6,899 bases of DNA from a virus (lineage: Duplodnaviria; Heunggongvirae; Uroviricota; Caudoviricetes). This document shows, piece by piece, positions 1 through 6,899 of the stretch. Under the pieces are notes generated by a model. The model did not search any database and was not told the DNA's origin. It saw nothing but the letters and a program-made list of their open reading frames with translations. Position 1 is the first letter of the stretch. Every line of letters starts with the position of its first letter. A program made the translations under genes and the position numbers. The DNA is taken from positions 1 to 6,899 of the IMG/VR virus record IMGVR_UViG_2698536369_000004. One strand, written 5' to 3'.

Positions 1-12
1 GGGATCGTGAGG

Positions 13-39
13 CAAAGAAAACCCGGCGCTGAGGCCGGG
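13..39 (-). terminator. Intrinsic terminator closing the leftward (cI-strand) transcription unit
   Basis: GC stem CCCGGC (22-27) / GCCGGG (34-39) with a 6-nt loop. On the minus strand the stem is followed by TTTTCTTTG (21..13). Lies about 20 nt past the stop of the 42-aa ORF. Confidence 0.6.
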
Positions 40-60
40 TTCTGTCATCTAACTTAAGTA

Positions 61-189
61 TCAAGCCGCTTTTTGTGAATGATTGATGTGAGCTTCAAAG
101 TCGCGGCGTAGATTTTGAACGCGCTCTACACATCCGCGCATTTCAGCCAAAAGCTTACTAACGGCAGTATAGTCAAACGCTTTAGTCAT
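61..189 (-). CDS. Hypothetical small protein (42 aa), second gene of the cassette downstream of cI
   Basis: Not in the ORF track (under 60 aa); found by reading the minus strand. ATG at 189..187, stop TGA at 63..61. Translation: MTKAFDYTAVSKLLAEMRGCVERVQNLRRDFEAHINHSQKAA. Preceded by GAGGGG plus an A-run, 15 nt after the stop of the upstream 120-aa ORF, and followed by the terminator at 13..39. No recognisable motif. Confidence 0.5.
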   Translation of the reverse strand: MTKAFDYTAVSKLLAEMRGCVERVQNLRRDFEAHINHSQKAA

Positions 190-204
190 TTTTTTTCCCC
201 TCGT

Positions 205-567
205 TTAAATGTAAGGCTCAACATCAAGGGCTGCTATTGCTGCGCACAATGCGTCAGGATCGTCAGCATCGATGGCTTGAGCCAGGTCATTAGCCAGTAT
301 AAGTAACTTATCGATGACAGCGATTTCGCTGGTCTTATCTACACGAAAGTATGGGAGCAGAGCATTACATACGTCTCTGAATGTCCGTAATTCTGCGACA
401 ACGTTCGAAAAGGTAGGATCTTTCTTACGAAGATCCACCAATGGCGCTACTTTAGCTGTTTTCAGCATTGCACTAATCTCGCCAATCATTGTTCCATGCA
501 GACGATTAAATTCATCAACAGCTCGGTCATGCAAGCTCTTGTTGATTGGCAATACGTTTTGGGTCAC
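205..567 (-). CDS. Hypothetical protein (120 aa), first gene of the cassette in the rexA-equivalent position
   Basis: Six-frame ORF with GTG start at 567..565 (first in-frame ATG is codon 27). Minus-strand AAGGAG sits 8 nt upstream of the GTG. Same strand as cI and immediately downstream of it. No similarity to RexA/RexB that I can recognise; no Walker or TM features seen. Confidence 0.7.
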   Translation of the reverse strand: MTQNVLPINKSLHDRAVDEFNRLHGTMIGEISAMLKTAKVAPLVDLRKKDPTFSNVVAELRTFRDVCNALLPYFRVDKTSEIAVIDKLLILANDLAQAIDADDPDALCAAIAALDVEPYI

Positions 568-784
568 TAACTATACTCCTTATATAGGTGTTCGCCAACA
601 GATTTTCAATATGACTTGGGCGATTTCTGAACAATAAGCACGATTTAGCAATGATTAATTGATGTTAAGCACAAATATCTCTACATCGTGCATTTTTAAC
701 TATTTATACACATAAAATCTAATAAATGGATATAAACCTTATGATGATTTTTCTCAATCGAATTGAATAATGATCTCTATCACA

Positions 785-1501
<717 letters not shown>

Positions 1502-1806: not shown

Positions 1807-1838
1807 CGCTCTTACACATTCCAGCCCTGAAAAAGGGC
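1807..1838 (+). promoter_or_regulatory. nutR N-utilisation site (boxA plus boxB hairpin)
   Basis: boxA CGCTCTTA (1807-1814) and boxB GCCCTGAAAAAGGGC (1824-1838), a 5-bp stem with 5-nt A-rich loop, placed just downstream of cro as in lambda. Confidence 0.88.
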
Positions 1839-1844
1839 ATCAAA

Positions 1845-2230: not shown

Positions 2231-2392
2231 ATGACAAAACGTCGTAAGAAATACCAGGAAAAAGAAGAGATTCGACACCCTGATTCACCTGAAGGATTAG
2301 TGGTAGCCGCAGCAAATAACAGGGCGTTCGCAGAGCGCCTTGTTGGTGTTTACAGACTAGCCAAAGCAGGAGTGAAACATGGGCGTCGTTAA
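2231..2392 (+). CDS. Candidate small ORF (53 aa) between cII and the O-type gene
   Basis: Not in the ORF track (under 60 aa). ATG at 2231 with GGGAG 7 nt upstream; the initiation region resembles the lambda O start (..GGAGTCATT-ATGACAAA..). Translation: [53 protein letters not shown]. Ends at TAA 2390-2392, overlapping the O-type start by 14 nt in another frame. Could instead be a non-coding remnant. Confidence 0.35.
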   Translation: MTKRRKKYQEKEEIRHPDSPEGLVVAAANNRAFAERLVGVYRLAKAGVKHGRR

Positions 2393-3200
2393 GTTAGCTG
2401 ATTACAGGCCTCAACTGGAGGTCGTGGAGCATCGCGTGGCAGATACCGAAGATGGTTTCATGCGCGTTGCTAACGAGATTACCGACAGTCTGCTGATGGC
2501 TGATTTAACCGTCCGGCAGCTGAAGGTGATGCTCGCTATCATGCGCAAGACATACGGATTCAATAAGCCGATGGATCGACTCACAAACACGCAGATAGCA
2601 GCCATGACAGGTATTCATCACACTCATGTTTGCGCTGCCAAGCGCCAGCTTATTGAGCGTAAATTCCTCATTGCTGATGGCGTGAAAATCGGAGTGAACA
2701 AGGTGGTTTCGCAGTGGATTAGCCAGGACAGCTTAACATTAGCTAAAACAGCTAATAAAACATTAGCCAAGTCGGCTAATAGGTATAAGCCAAGTCAGCT
2801 AAACACAAAAGACAATATACAAAAGACAATAAATACAAATACCCCCTTACCCCCTAACGGGGGCGGCGATGGGCAGGTTAAACCTGAACGTCGCAAGGCA
2901 GAACGAATCGACTACGAATCCTTCCTGAACGCCTACAACACCGAAGTCGGTAACAGACTTCCACACGCTGTTGCGGTCAACGAGAAACGCAAACGCCGCC
3001 TGAAGAAAATCATCCCGCAACTAAAAACGCCAAACGTGGACGGTTTCAGAGCGTATGTCAGGGCGTTTGTGCATCAGGCCAAGCCGTTTTACTTCGGAGA
3101 CAACGACACGGGCTGGACGGCTGATTTTGATTACCTGCTGAGAGAAGATTCGTTAACGGGAGTTCGGGAAGGGAAGTTTGCAGACAGGGGGATTGCATGA
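2379..3200 (+). CDS. O: Replication initiation protein, lambda O / P22 gp18 type (273 aa)
   Basis: N-terminal region aligns with lambda O as recalled ([28 protein letters not shown] versus lambda ADLTKRQFKVLLAILRKTYGWNKPMDRI). Contains an internal iteron origin. Stop TGA overlaps the helicase ATG (ATGA at 3197-3200). Confidence 0.92.
2719..2863. repeat. Origin of replication inside the O-type gene: four iterons, AT-rich tract, GC hairpin
   Basis: Four ~18-bp iterons with internal dyad symmetry: TTAGCCAGGACAGCTTAA (2719-2736), TTAGCTAAAACAGCTAAT (2739-2756), TTAGCCAAGTCGGCTAAT (2763-2780), TAAGCCAAGTCAGCTAAA (2786-2803). These are followed by an AT-rich stretch with CAAAAGACAATA repeats (2804-2841) and the palindrome CCCCCTAACGGGGG (2850-2863). 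Same architecture as ori-lambda. Confidence 0.78.
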
Positions 3201-4573
3201 GACAGGATATCGAAGCGAGCGTTATCGGTGGCCTGCTGATTGGTGGATTAACACCAACCGCCAGCGACGTTCTGGCAACGCTGGAGCCGGAAGCGTTTTC
3301 AATTCCGCTCTACCGGAAAGCCTTCGAGGTTATCCGCAAGCAGGCGCGAAACAGAAATTTAATCGACGCGCTGATGGTTGCCGAGGCGTGCGGAGAGGAG
3401 CATTTCACGTCAATCCTGATGACCAGCAAAAACTGCCCGAGTGCCGCAAACCTGAAGGGATATGCCGGAATGGTCGCGGATAACTATCACCGCCGTCTGG
3501 TGCTGGAAATCATGGATGAAATGCGTGAACCAATCCAAAGCGGAACCATCGACGCATCGAGTCAGGCGATGGATGAGCTTGTAAAGCGTCTTTCAGCCAT
3601 CAGAAAGCCCCGTGACGAGGTTAAACCGGTACGCTTAGGGGAAATCATCACTGACTACACCGACACGCTTGACAGGCGTCTGAGGAACGGAGAAGAGTCA
3701 GATACCCTGAAGACCGGAATTGAAGAACTTGACGCCATCACCGGAGGGATGAACGCAGAAGACCTAGTGATTATCGCCGCTCGTCCTGGTATGGGGAAAA
3801 CCGAACTGGCGCTGAAGATTGCCGAAGGCGTGGCAAGCCGCGTTATTCCTGGTTCTGACGTCCGGCGCGGGGTATTGATTTTCTCAATGGAAATGAGCGC
3901 ATTGCAGATTGCAGAGCGAAGCATTGCCAACGCCGGGAGGATGTCGGTTAGCGTACTGCGAAATCCTGCATCGATGGATGACGAAGGCTGGGCGCGTGTT
4001 GCTAACGGCATGAGTCAGCTTGCAGATTTTGATGTATGGGTAGTCGATGCCTCGCGGTTATCGGTCGAAGAAATACGCTCAATCGCAGAACGGCACAAAC
4101 AGGAAAATCCAAACCTGTCACTCATCATGGCGGATTATCTTGGCCTGATTGAGAAGCCGAAAGCAGACCGCAACGACCTCGCAATTGCTCACATCTCCGG
4201 AAGCCTGAAGGCGATGGCGAAAGACCTGAAAACGCCTGTTATCTCCCTGAGTCAGCTTTCGCGCGATGTTGAGAAGCGACCAAACAAACGCCCGACAAAC
4301 GCAGATTTGCGTGATTCAGGAAGCATTGAACAGGACGCAGACTCAATCATCATGATCTATCGGGAAGCGGTATATGACGAGAACAGTAGCGCCGCGCCAT
4401 TTGCTGAAATCATCGTGACGAAAAACCGTTTTGGCTCGCTTGGTACGGTTTACCAGCGGTTCTGCAACGGACACTTTGTTGCATGTGACCAGGATGAGGC
4501 CAGACAGATTTGCACAGCATCAAATGCACCCGCTGCACGTGGAAGACGATATGCACAAGGGGCTGACGTATGA
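3197..4573 (+). CDS. Replicative DNA helicase, DnaB family (458 aa), P22 gp12-like
   Basis: Walker A in [13 protein letters not shown] and a DnaB-like motif [10 protein letters not shown] in a RecA-type C-terminal domain, with a DnaB-like N-terminal domain. Size and position directly after the O-type gene match the P22-type replication module. Confidence 0.93.
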
Positions 4574-4598
4574 CCATCTACATCACTGAGCTAATAAC

Positions 4599-4630
4599 AG
4601 GCCTGCTGGTAATCGCAGGCCTTTTTATTT
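4599..4630 (+). terminator. Intrinsic terminator downstream of the helicase gene (tR2-like position)
   Basis: Perfect 8-bp stem AGGCCTGC (4599-4606) / GCAGGCCT (4615-4622), 8-nt loop, followed by TTTTATTT (4623-4630). Confidence 0.72.
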
Positions 4631-4659
4631 GGGGGAGAGGGAATTGGAGGCTTTAAGAA

Positions 4660-4875
4660 ATGAGTACGATAGCTGAGCTTGTCAGGGCTAATTTTCGTGA
4701 AGAGTTGGTGCGTTGGTATCGGTATCGTTCATCGTCCAGTTTGCCGATTGATGAGTTGTATGAGCATTCACCTGCTGCACGACGCTATCCGCGTGACCGT
4801 GTTCTTCGACGGTTGTTCAAACTCAACAATGAGTTTCAGCGCAACAGAATAATCCGGAGTCTGGATTTAAAGTGA
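4660..4875 (+). CDS. Hypothetical basic protein (71 aa)
   Basis: ATG at 4660 with GGAGG 9 nt upstream. Arg-rich (MSTIAELVRANFREELVRWYRYRSSSSLPIDELYEHSPAARRYPRDRVLRRLFKLNNEFQRNRIIRSLDLK). First ORF after the terminator; no family recognised. Confidence 0.6.
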   Translation: MSTIAELVRANFREELVRWYRYRSSSSLPIDELYEHSPAARRYPRDRVLRRLFKLNNEFQRNRIIRSLDLK

Positions 4876-4885
4876 AGGAGTGAGC

Positions 4886-5071
4886 ATGAGTCGACGAAGT
4901 AGCTTTTTGGGGTTTGTAATATTCCTATTCTGCACTGGTTACATCGTAATCTGGTCAATTTCGAACATTGAACGTGGCGGGGAATATCTCATTGTAATGT
5001 TCTTTCCTTTGTTTCTTGGGTGGTACGCCGCAAGGTTGCTGGAAGAATGGGGTTACAGGCATAAAAAATAA
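4886..5071 (+). CDS. Hypothetical small membrane protein (61 aa, two predicted TM helices)
   Basis: The ORF-track start at 4880 is GTG; the ATG at 4886 has AAGGAG (4875-4880) 5 nt upstream. Hydrophobic segments FLGFVIFLFCTGYIVIWSI and YLIVMFFPLFLGWYAA; basic C-terminus (YRHKK). Confidence 0.6.
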   Translation: MSRRSSFLGFVIFLFCTGYIVIWSISNIERGGEYLIVMFFPLFLGWYAARLLEEWGYRHKK

Positions 5072-5130: not shown

Positions 5131-5313
5131 ATGGTAAATGCATTTATTTGTAGTTTATTTCTTGTCGCGATTTTTCATGGATTCCTTCTGATGATGAGTT
5201 TTGTTCTCTGGAATAATGAATATCGCATATTGGGAGTAGGTTTTGTTTTACGGTTTTCAGTTGTCTGCGCGTTGCTACCGATAATTATGGCGACTATCAA
5301 ATATTATTGGTAA
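5131..5313 (+). CDS. Hypothetical small membrane protein (60 aa, two predicted TM helices)
   Basis: ATG at 5131 with GAGGGG about 10 nt upstream. Hydrophobic segments AFICSLFLVAIFHGFLLMMSFVLW and ILGVGFVLRFSVVCALLPIIMATI. AT-rich codon usage. Confidence 0.55.
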   Translation: MVNAFICSLFLVAIFHGFLLMMSFVLWNNEYRILGVGFVLRFSVVCALLPIIMATIKYYW

Positions 5314-5328
5314 CCCAAAAAATCATCG

Positions 5329-5697
5329 ATGGAGAGTGATATGGACGAATCAAGAAAGCAGTTTGAGGAATACGTTGCCAAAAAATTGAGATTACCATTC
5401 GAGATGATAACCGAGGCAAGAAATGGTGATAGGTACTTCGCATTTTCAAGCATGGATATTCGTCACTCCTTAAATGAGTGGTGGACTTTATGGCAGGCAT
5501 CGCGAGCAGCTATTGAACTGGATATCGACTGGCCAGAATCGAATGACGACTTTTGGAGAGATGGTGAAGAAGGTGCTTATGCGATGGGTTATGAGAATGG
5601 GCGTGACAAAACGGTAATTGCAGTAATGAAAGCTATCAGAGCCGCTGGAATTAAAGAGAAGAATTTCGATGAAGCAAACAATCTTCCTCCGAAGTAA
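5329..5697 (+). CDS. Hypothetical acidic protein (122 aa; alternative start at 5341 gives 118 aa)
   Basis: Long ORF. The ATG at 5341 has GGAGAG (5331-5336) upstream, whereas the ATG at 5329 has no SD. Acidic and Trp-rich (NEWWTLWQASRAAIELDIDWPESNDDFWRDGEEGAY). 3' end overlaps the ninB start by 29 nt. No family recognised. Confidence 0.62.
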   Translation: MESDMDESRKQFEEYVAKKLRLPFEMITEARNGDRYFAFSSMDIRHSLNEWWTLWQASRAAIELDIDWPESNDDFWRDGEEGAYAMGYENGRDKTVIAVMKAIRAAGIKEKNFDEANNLPPK

Positions 5698-6079
5698 GCA
5701 ACAACAGCAAGCCGCAATCAACGCCATCCTCGCAACACCACTCGATAAAGACAAGCCAGTCACCATCCGCATTACTGACTACAAGCGCAACCTTGACCAG
5801 AACGCAAAATTTCACGCGATGGTCGCAGATATCGCTCGTCAAGCTCAATGGTGCGGCAAATGGTTAAAACCAGAACAATGGAAGGTTTTGTTGATCAGCG
5901 GTCATGCAGTGGCAACAAAGCAGGAAGCTGATGTTTTGCCCGGGCTTGAAGGCGAATACGTCAACATTCGCGAAAGCAGCGCGCAGATGAGTGTGAAGCG
6001 TATGGCAAGTCTTATCGAGTACACAACAGCTTGGGCTATTGGTCAGGGTGTCAGATTTACCGACAGGAGGTACGAATGA
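5669..6079 (+). CDS. ninB: NinB (Orf-family recombination mediator), 136 aa
   Basis: Aligns with lambda NinB as recalled ([20 protein letters not shown] versus MKKLTFEIRSPAHQQNAIHAV; [12 protein letters not shown] versus RSLDQNRKLWAC). Stop overlaps the ninE start (ATGA at 6076-6079). Confidence 0.9.
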
Positions 6080-6252
6080 GACGACAGCGACGAAGTATCA
6101 CCGACATCATCTGCGAAAACTGCAAATACCTTCCAACGAAACGCTCCAGAAATAAACGCAAGCCAATTCCAAAAGAATCTGACGTAAAAACCTTCAACTA
6201 CACGGCTCACCTGTGGGATATCCGGTGGCTAAGACATCGTGCGAGGAAATGA
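6076..6252 (+). CDS. ninE: NinE (58 aa)
   Basis: Translation from ATG 6076: [58 protein letters not shown], matching lambda NinE as recalled. AGGAGG at 6065-6070. The ORF-track start at 6031 is an upstream in-frame extension overlapping ninB. Confidence 0.88.
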
Positions 6253-6254
6253 CA

Positions 6255-6596
6255 ATGGATTATTCACAGTTAAGTGATTTTGAAATTAACCGAATGGTAG
6301 GAGACATAATTTTTAAAGGCCTTTGGGCATGTAAGCCTGAAACATCAGGGAATAACACCAACAAATGGTATTACGGAAATGCCGATGTAAGTCTTGAGCC
6401 ATTAAACCCTTTGCCTGACTACTGCAATGATCCGAGCGCTTCATGGCCGATTATTGAGAAATACAGGATTTCTATCTTAGACCAGTTAACTGAATGGTGT
6501 GTGGATGCAAAAGGCGTAAGCCCAATATTTGATACCAGACCTCTCCGCGCCGCCATGATTGTCTTTCTCCTGATGCAGGAGGCCAATAATGCTTAG
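6255..6596 (+). CDS. nin-region hypothetical protein (113 aa) in the position of P22 NinX
   Basis: ATG at 6255 directly after the ninE stop, with GAGGAA upstream; the ORF-track start at 6213 overlaps ninE. Lies between ninE and ninF, where P22-type nin regions carry ninX. Identity to NinX is positional only. Confidence 0.65.
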
Positions 6597-6765
6597 CCCA
6601 TCTCAATCCCTTCAATACCAGAAAGAAAGCGTCGAGCGGGCTTTAACGTGCGCTAACTGCGGTCAGAAGCTGCATGTGCTGGAAGTTCACGTGTGTGAGC
6701 ACTGCTGCGCAGAACTGATGAGCGATCCGAATAGCTCAATGTACGAGGAAGAAGACGATGAGTGA
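6589..6765 (+). CDS. ninF: NinF (58 aa)
   Basis: Not in the ORF track (under 60 aa). Translation from ATG 6589: [58 protein letters not shown], matching lambda NinF as recalled, with Cys-rich CxxC...CxxCC. Overlaps the preceding ORF by 8 nt. Confidence 0.88.
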
Positions 6766-6784
6766 TTACCTGAAATGGTATCTC

Positions 6785-6899
6785 TGAACCGCCCCGGGAA
6801 TCCTGGAGACTAAACTCCCTGAGAAAGAGGTAAACAGAATGACTAAAAATACTCGTTTTTCCCCCGAAGTCCGTCAGAGGGCGATTCGTATGGTTCTGG
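6785..6899 (+). mobile_element. Left end of an IS3-family insertion sequence (IS629/IS1203-like); continues beyond the window
   Basis: Terminal inverted repeat beginning TGAACCGCCCCGGG at 6785, typical of IS3-family ends (5'-TG). It is followed at the expected distance by an orfA start whose N-terminus MTKNTRFSPEVRQRAIRMVL matches IS629/IS1203 OrfA as recalled. Confidence 0.85.
6839..6899 (+). CDS. IS3-family transposase OrfA, N-terminal fragment (truncated by window end)
   Basis: ATG at 6839; translation MTKNTRFSPEVRQRAIRMVL... (HTH-containing OrfA of the IS629/IS1203 group). Confidence 0.85.
   Translation, partial: MTKNTRFSPEVRQRAIRMVL

Follow-up and report, generated by a model that had tools for sequence, protein, structure and literature searches.

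An IS629-group insertion sequence interrupts an accessory nin-region gene directly after ninF in a lambda-immunity prophage

We found that the stretch of DNA analysed here, 6,899 nucleotides of lambdoid prophage DNA from the early-right operon (hereafter the window), breaks off within the left end of an insertion sequence of the IS629 group that lies just downstream of ninF. The reading that we favour, to which we give about three chances in four, is a simple transposition of an IS629-group element into a 70-amino-acid gene of the family phrog_3973 after its ninth codon, with the rest of the nin region and Q following beyond the element and with little effect on Q. The insertion is real but ordinary: it involves a known IS in a known kind of place, and a near-equivalent has been published in phage Sf6.

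The window spans a 6.9-kb early-right operon with lambda immunity. In the list of open reading frames, a lambda-type cI repressor gene lies on the minus strand at 785-1498 and a lambda-type cro gene on the plus strand at 1599-1799. The promoter PR, read from the sequence within OR1-OR3, occupies 1546-1574 on the plus strand and is of lambda type, with TTGACT and GATAAT elements 17 nt apart; it is the origin of the operon that crosses the insertion site. Downstream of cro lies nutR (1808-1839, plus strand), composed of boxA CGCTCTTA (1808-1815) and boxB GCCCTGAAAAAGGGC (1825-1839), which we take to be identical to the nutR of lambda. The replication block follows, with cII (1918-2196), an O-type initiator gene (2379-3200) and a DnaB-type helicase gene (3197-4573). 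Just 3' of the helicase gene, a terminator scan revealed a tR2-like intrinsic terminator (4599-4622, plus strand) whose 8-bp stem has six GC pairs and is followed by TTTTATTT; the homologous site in Sf6 carries the annotation tR2. Several small open reading frames separate this terminator from ninB (5669-6079), after which come ninE (6076-6252), ninX (6255-6596) and ninF (6589-6765, plus strand). The last of these encodes 58 amino acids, matches the Pfam family NinF (PF05810, E 1.8e-12), terminates with TGA at 6763-6765 and is the final gene left whole upstream of the IS. In Rfam, the window matched no family at gathering score. The window as a whole is mosaic. Its best matches, at about 97.5% identity, extend over no more than 69% of its length and are to HK544/HK97-like phages and to prophages of O26 and other E. 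coli. The exact NinF protein is widespread, being listed in 16,485 collection blocks.

Two further parts of the window were also inspected. To the left of cI, where lambda has rexAB, positions 1-790 hold two minus-strand genes of unassigned function, one of 120 amino acids (205-567, phrog_13858) and one of 42 amino acids (61-189, phrog_12503). This segment is 100% identical to prophages of the STEC O103 strain RM8385 and of other strains; the RM8385 prophage is integrated next to ybhC and has, just past the equivalent genes, a 90-amino-acid open reading frame in the N position and sieB. Between the terminator and ninB, the segment 4880-5320 has a GC content of 0.37-0.39, compared with about 0.48 around it, and holds two small hydrophobic open reading frames of 63 (4880-5071) and 60 (5131-5313) amino acids, neither of which matched Pfam or PHROG. 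RefSeq has no annotation for the equivalent DNA in prophages of O26 and O103.

The IS sequence begins at position 6785 and runs on the plus strand to the end of the window at 6899, so that 115 nt of the element are covered and its right end and everything beyond lie past 6899. These 115 nt are identical at every position (115/115, no mismatch) to L003:2001-2115, the left-terminal 115 nt of an IS3-family element of 1310 bp (L003:2001-3310). The terminal inverted repeats of that full-length copy start TGAACCGCCCCGGG and match each other at 23 of 25 nt, and its transposase bears an IS3 family annotation that includes a programmed frameshift. In the window, the left terminal inverted repeat (6785-6809, plus strand; TGAACCGCCCCGGGAATCCTGGAGA) begins with 5'-TG and is complementary at 23 of 25 positions to the right end of the full copy. 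The first 20 codons of transposase orfA occupy 6839-6899 on the plus strand (MTKNTRFSPEVRQRAIRMVL), are preceded by AAGAGG at 6825-6830 and begin identically to orfA of L003. They read in the same direction as transcription from PR (sense), and the 20 residues that they encode gave a weak match to the Pfam family HTH_Tnp_1 (E 0.013).

Annotated IS629/IS1203v copies in Stx phages matched the fragment at 112-113 of 115 nt (97.4-98.3%). In VT2-Sakai (AP000422) the corresponding DNA falls under the annotation 'inverted repeat from left end of IS629', with 97.4% identity over 115 nt, and LC567824, which carries another annotated IS629 sub-type, matched at 107 of 115 nt (93.0%, over these 115 nt only). 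Over its full length, the L003 copy is 95.4% identical to an annotated IS629; in ISfinder practice, the isoform level corresponds to about 95% or more nucleotide identity across the element. IS629 sub-types differ from one another by 4-5%, a spread inside which the value of 95.4% falls, with IS1203 and IS3411 regarded as isoforms (PMC3271280). The left terminus and the orfA start are features that the window has in common with the IS629/IS1203/IS3411 group, whereas none of the phage-borne EHEC copies matches its exact 115-nt variant at 100%. On these comparisons the element is the left end of an IS3-family insertion sequence of the IS629/IS1203 group, which bears out the earlier note, where an IS629/IS1203-like element with an IS3-family repeat starting at 6785 had been proposed.

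The junction between phage and IS DNA is sharply defined. An ATG at 6758-6760 overlaps the ninF stop as ATGAGTGA, and the frame that it opens runs for nine codons (MSDYLKWYL) to a TGA at 6785-6787, which consists of the first three bases of the IS; 19 nt (6766-6784) separate the ninF stop from the element. The earlier note had reported this ATG, the nine-codon frame, the IS-derived TGA and the 19-nt gap, all with correct coordinates. Uninterrupted relatives show no mismatch on the phage side as far as 6786, where the homology ends. Since the TG at 6785-6786 is common to the IS end and the target, the breakpoint is ambiguous by 2 nt, and we placed the insertion after 6784 because annotated IS629 copies begin TGAACC. 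Homology to the IS begins at the terminal nucleotide of the element, and the join therefore points to transposition rather than to chance similarity or a random assembly join.

In the relatives, the target reads TATCTC|TGCC. IS629 generates duplications of 3-4 bp (PMC3271280), and the annotated IS629 of LC567824 is accompanied by a 3-bp target-site duplication. The duplication predicted here would be CTC (or TCTC), with its left copy at 6782-6784 and its right copy past the end of the window. For a simple insertion, the right junction would read ...GGTTCA-CTC-TGCC..., or with longer flanks ...CCCGGGGCGGTTCA-CTC-TGCC(A/T)CCGCTGGTTAAT, and the region would be about 1313 bp longer than its uninterrupted counterpart. 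From the predicted right copy onwards, the rest of the 70-amino-acid gene would read CTC-TGCC(A/T)CCGCTGGTTAATTAAG....

The truncated frame (6758-6787, plus strand), preceded by a Shine-Dalgarno-like GAGGAAG and made up of nine native codons and the TGA supplied by the IS, corresponds to the 5' end of a conserved 70-amino-acid nin-region gene. Positions 6758-6786 are identical at 29 of 29 nt to the intact alleles at nine loci, all of which start 8 nt before the end of ninF. The intact gene, found for example in E. coli A3019 and in the Salmonella phage vB_SalP_ABTNLsp11242, is 213 nt long, starts at the same ATG and encodes a 70-residue product (...(H/L)RWLIK...) that matches phrog_3973 with an E value of 8.7e-52 over 70 of 70 positions. 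With nine codons surviving in the window, the assignment to this family rests on synteny and nucleotide identity. For the 70-amino-acid protein, Pfam yielded sub-threshold noise alone, a sequence search of the PDB found no relatives, and all 18 named homologue clusters are called 'hypothetical'.

It had been proposed that the insertion lies in the 5' end of the gene after ninF and that this gene is ninG. The position proved right, after codon 9, whereas the identity did not: the 29-nt match assigns the gene to phrog_3973, and ninG diverges immediately after the start codon. In a ninG-type locus (L010) the gene begins at the same ATG and reads ATGGCTAAACCAGCG... (MAKPARRR), where the window reads ATGAGTGATTACCTG (MSDYL), and the matches to ninG-type prophages stop at window position 6760, right after the common ATG. 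When the flanks were aligned with the intact nin regions of relatives, the next gene was indeed seen to start at the ATG at 6758, before the insertion.

We found the gene order 70-amino-acid gene, ybcO/DUF1364, rusA, ninH and Q after NinF in 7 of 10 distinct contexts with an identical NinF. The Q gene of these relatives is of the P22 gp23 type and starts 1009 nt past the insertion point, and start/stop overlaps of 4 or 8 nt link the genes from the 70-amino-acid gene to Q, within a chain of start-to-stop overlapping genes that extends from ninE to Q. The earlier suggestion that the gene after ninF lies on the route from PR to Q thus holds in the uninterrupted relatives. The 70-amino-acid gene itself is, as judged from its distribution, a minority accessory module. 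It was present in 7 of 50,697 phage records, compared with 400 records matched by the ninX-ninF segment, and the slot after ninF is taken by at least four alternative modules, namely ninG, KilAC/Rha antirepressors, an HNH gene and the 70-amino-acid gene. Naturally frameshifted or truncated alleles of the gene also exist. Because it is rare in phage records, is replaced by other modules at the same ATG and is found broken in nature, we infer that the gene is dispensable.

The ATG overlapping the ninF stop was also seen to be a mosaic hotspot (window 6757-6792), where at least four modules are built on one start codon. The point at which homology to the window ends differs between groups: besides 6760 for ninG, it is 6768 for the KilAC antirepressor and 6773 and 6778 for Rha and other types, and the 70-amino-acid type runs through. 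A second joint lies within the 70-amino-acid gene, as the C-terminal 48 residues of its product, from Met23, also occur as a separate open reading frame (L027:4001-4147, and L028-L032). At L027 an unrelated gene lies upstream of this frame and is coupled to it through an ATGA overlap, which makes a mosaic joint inside the gene. The internal start at Met23 would exist in the present prophage too if the part downstream of the IS were intact. The cluster of 48-amino-acid proteins was considered as a possible set of right-junction contigs and rejected, since five of its six listed places begin 1-2 nt before Met23 and the sixth is the mosaic joint at L027.

Under simple transposition, a copy of an IS629-group element (IS3 family, 1310 bp when complete) would have jumped into this lambda-immunity lambdoid prophage. 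Its left terminus abuts the target exactly, and the 70-amino-acid gene is reduced to a 9-residue peptide. On the right, the IS would be complete and flanked by the CTC duplication and the remainder of the gene, and beyond it ybcO/DUF1364, rusA and ninH would follow in that order, with Q roughly 1 kb downstream. The immediate result would be the loss of one dispensable accessory gene and the addition of about 1.3 kb of DNA.

Megablast located the junction between phage and IS in none of 5,426 complete E. coli genomes and in none of 50,697 phage records, and exact-pattern scans of the GTDB species representatives, IMG/VR and the JGI metagenomes did not detect it either. The right IS end with its duplication was likewise recovered by none of these junction searches (E. 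coli genomes, phage records, GTDB, IMG/VR and JGI), and the contigs encoding the exact NinX and NinF proteins presented uninterrupted contexts only. Because the junction was found in none of the searched collections, the insertion looks private to the strain and is probably recent. In O157, prophages and prophage-like elements account for 62% of the IS629 copies, without a specific target sequence having been seen (PMC3271280).

The IS had also been read as a hint of an enterohaemorrhagic host background. This hint appears weak: APEC plasmids and strains outside EHEC, environmental ones among them, carry the exact 115-nt variant at 100% identity, and a match to the 115-nt fragment is present in 3,606 of the 5,426 complete E. 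coli genomes, at a median of 3 places per matching genome and at up to 50. As a pointer to the host, the identity of window positions 1-790 to STEC O103 prophages seems weak at best.

Insertions of related elements at comparable positions are known from phages. In the Shigella phage Sf6 (NC_005344; Casjens et al. 2004), IS911 lies 98 nt into the gene directly after ninF, upstream of ninH-ninI-Q; it destroys this nin gene, yet Sf6 is a functional phage. Sf6 resembles the window in having an IS3-family insertion in a lambdoid/P22-like genome with nutR, and it also has tR1 and tR2. It differs in that the element is IS911 and not IS629, the target is ninG and not phrog_3973, and the IS is antisense there, as opposed to sense here; furthermore, the viability of Sf6 is experimental, whereas the prophage of the window is known from sequence alone. 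Deletions that remove IS911 from Sf6 left the onset of late transcription unchanged and made lysis faster (Dover et al. 2016, PMC5630979), and since lysis is sped up, the IS does carry a fitness cost in Sf6. In the Stx2a phages PA27 and PA52 (KP682380; PMC4587872), IS629 is inserted in roi, between ninE and ninG-ninH-Q, and the DNA of PA27 came from particles that were set free when ciprofloxacin was used for induction (PMC4587872). PA27 differs from the window in its target, roi, in the antisense orientation of its IS and in being Stx-converting, and the left end of its IS matches that of the window at 112 of 115 nt. Because the IS is antisense in both Sf6 and PA27 and sense here, these phages are close, not exact, models. 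In lambda, nin5 is a deletion of the nin region, and the P-Q interval is dispensable for lytic growth. Deletions of the nin5 type also remove terminators, whereas the window gains DNA and keeps tR2. The genes between P and Q have been described as dispensable for laboratory lytic growth (PMC5630979). Elsewhere among phages and prophages, phage VT2phi_272 (HQ424691; L037 4501-5810) carries IS629 in its late lysis region, flanked by the lysozyme gene on one side and ant/Rz on the other and antisense to the late operon, and a related prophage in E. coli 7_26_9A (NZ_CP074826.1) has an annotated IS600, of the IS3 family, in the replication/nin segment that matches the window.

Several features of the insertion could be taken to mean, in line with the polarity and defective prophage raised as a possibility in the earlier note, that the IS is strongly polar, so that transcripts from PR would end in or after it, Q would not be made and the prophage would be locked in a defective state. 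The insertion lies between PR and Q, as placed in the relatives, and breaks the chain of start/stop-overlapping genes that leads toward Q. In a modelled right junction, built from the L003 IS, CTC or TCTC and the downstream sequence of L016, about 230 nt from the transposase stop to the ybcO start would be untranslated and could expose Rho entry sites, exposure of such sites in untranslated RNA being a general mechanism (PMC12360218). The majority of O157 prophages have been described as defective (PMC4587872), which was also counted for a polar effect. Against this, both nutR and the tR2-like terminator lie in the window (the N gene falls outside it). Because a polymerase arriving at the IS would already have passed these two sites, it should be N-modified and, being N-modified, should resist Rho-dependent polarity. 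Adhya, Gottesman and de Crombrugghe reportedly observed in 1974 that IS insertions lose their polarity where transcription is N-modified. Moreover, the terminator scan found no intrinsic-terminator-like site on the sense strand of the full-length IS (L003), and both Sf6 and PA27 accommodate elements of the IS3 family in equivalent places. We consequently regard a polar effect on Q that would kill the prophage as unlikely; on this analysis, Q expression after induction would probably be affected mildly at most, and translational coupling along the overlapping ninE-Q chain could matter. In another reading, an outward promoter in the IS, a possibility raised in the earlier note, or a hybrid -35/-10 promoter at the right junction would drive ybcO-rusA-ninH-Q without PR and N. 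The right ends of IS3-family elements do carry an outward -35, which is used in the circle-junction promoter, and this was counted in its favour. However, a relaxed sigma-70 scan of the modelled junction gave a single 8/12 match, located wholly in phage DNA, and no promoter using the IS end; a consensus scan of the IS returned no promoter-like site; and constitutive Q would kill a lysogen. Such a promoter appears very improbable.

The IS could also be the edge of a larger rearrangement (a deletion, an inversion or IS-IS recombination), in which case the sequence past the IS would belong to something other than the remainder of this prophage and Q and the late genes might be missing or displaced. 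The window stops inside the IS, and in O157 genomes matching duplications were found at just 21 of 47 IS629 sites (PMC3271280), a proportion from which we infer that rearrangements at IS629 copies are common. The full-length reference copy L003 itself has no duplication, and no genome sharing the junction was found for comparison. The left junction, on the other hand, is a clean join of terminus to target, as simple transposition predicts; a window end within a multicopy IS is expected as well from a short-read contig break or an arbitrary cut; and positive evidence for a rearrangement was none. We regard this account as possible, with a minor share of the probability. That the prophage contig was joined in assembly to an unrelated IS copy is, by comparison, barely credible. 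The IS629 group is multicopy and the window halts 115 nt into the element, which would favour such a chimera, but phage sequence gives way to IS sequence precisely at the terminal nucleotide of the IS, whereas mis-joins normally fall inside common sequence.

A natural deletion ends at nearly the same point as the insertion. In other phages (L033:3001-3318, L035 and L036), codons 1-43 of DUF7301 are fused in frame to codons 9-70 of the 70-amino-acid gene, which amounts to a nin deletion of about 2 kb with ninB-ninF gone. The left arm of the fusion is 100% identical to window positions 4570-4789, and the fusion protein is encoded on at least 23 contigs. Its junction lies in a TATC microhomology (window 4786-4789 and 6779-6782), 0-3 nt from the IS insertion point, and the fusion sequence GCTAT|CTCTG would equally result if an IS left precisely this site and took the left flank with it. 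In Sf6, nin deletions associated with IS911 have been seen experimentally (PMC5630979). Because the IS lies in the sense orientation inside an N-antiterminated PR operon, induction could bring strong read-through transcription and translation of the transposase. It is conceivable, though we consider it a long shot, that SOS induction drives the sense IS629 transposase through N-antiterminated PR and so leads to a burst of transposition or excision, with the DUF7301::orf70 fusion being an excision scar at a recurrent IS target. If this were true, the insertion site would be both a recurrent target of IS elements and a source of nin deletions.

The significance of the insertion is modest, as it provides a private insertion usable as a strain marker and inactivates one accessory gene. 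It would gain weight if the IS blocked Q, giving a newly locked-in prophage, or if it marked the boundary of a deletion. Insertions of the IS629 group are among the main drivers by which prophages diversify in pathogenic E. coli, and the examples of Sf6 and PA27 suggest that a phage can stay functional with such an insertion at some fitness cost.
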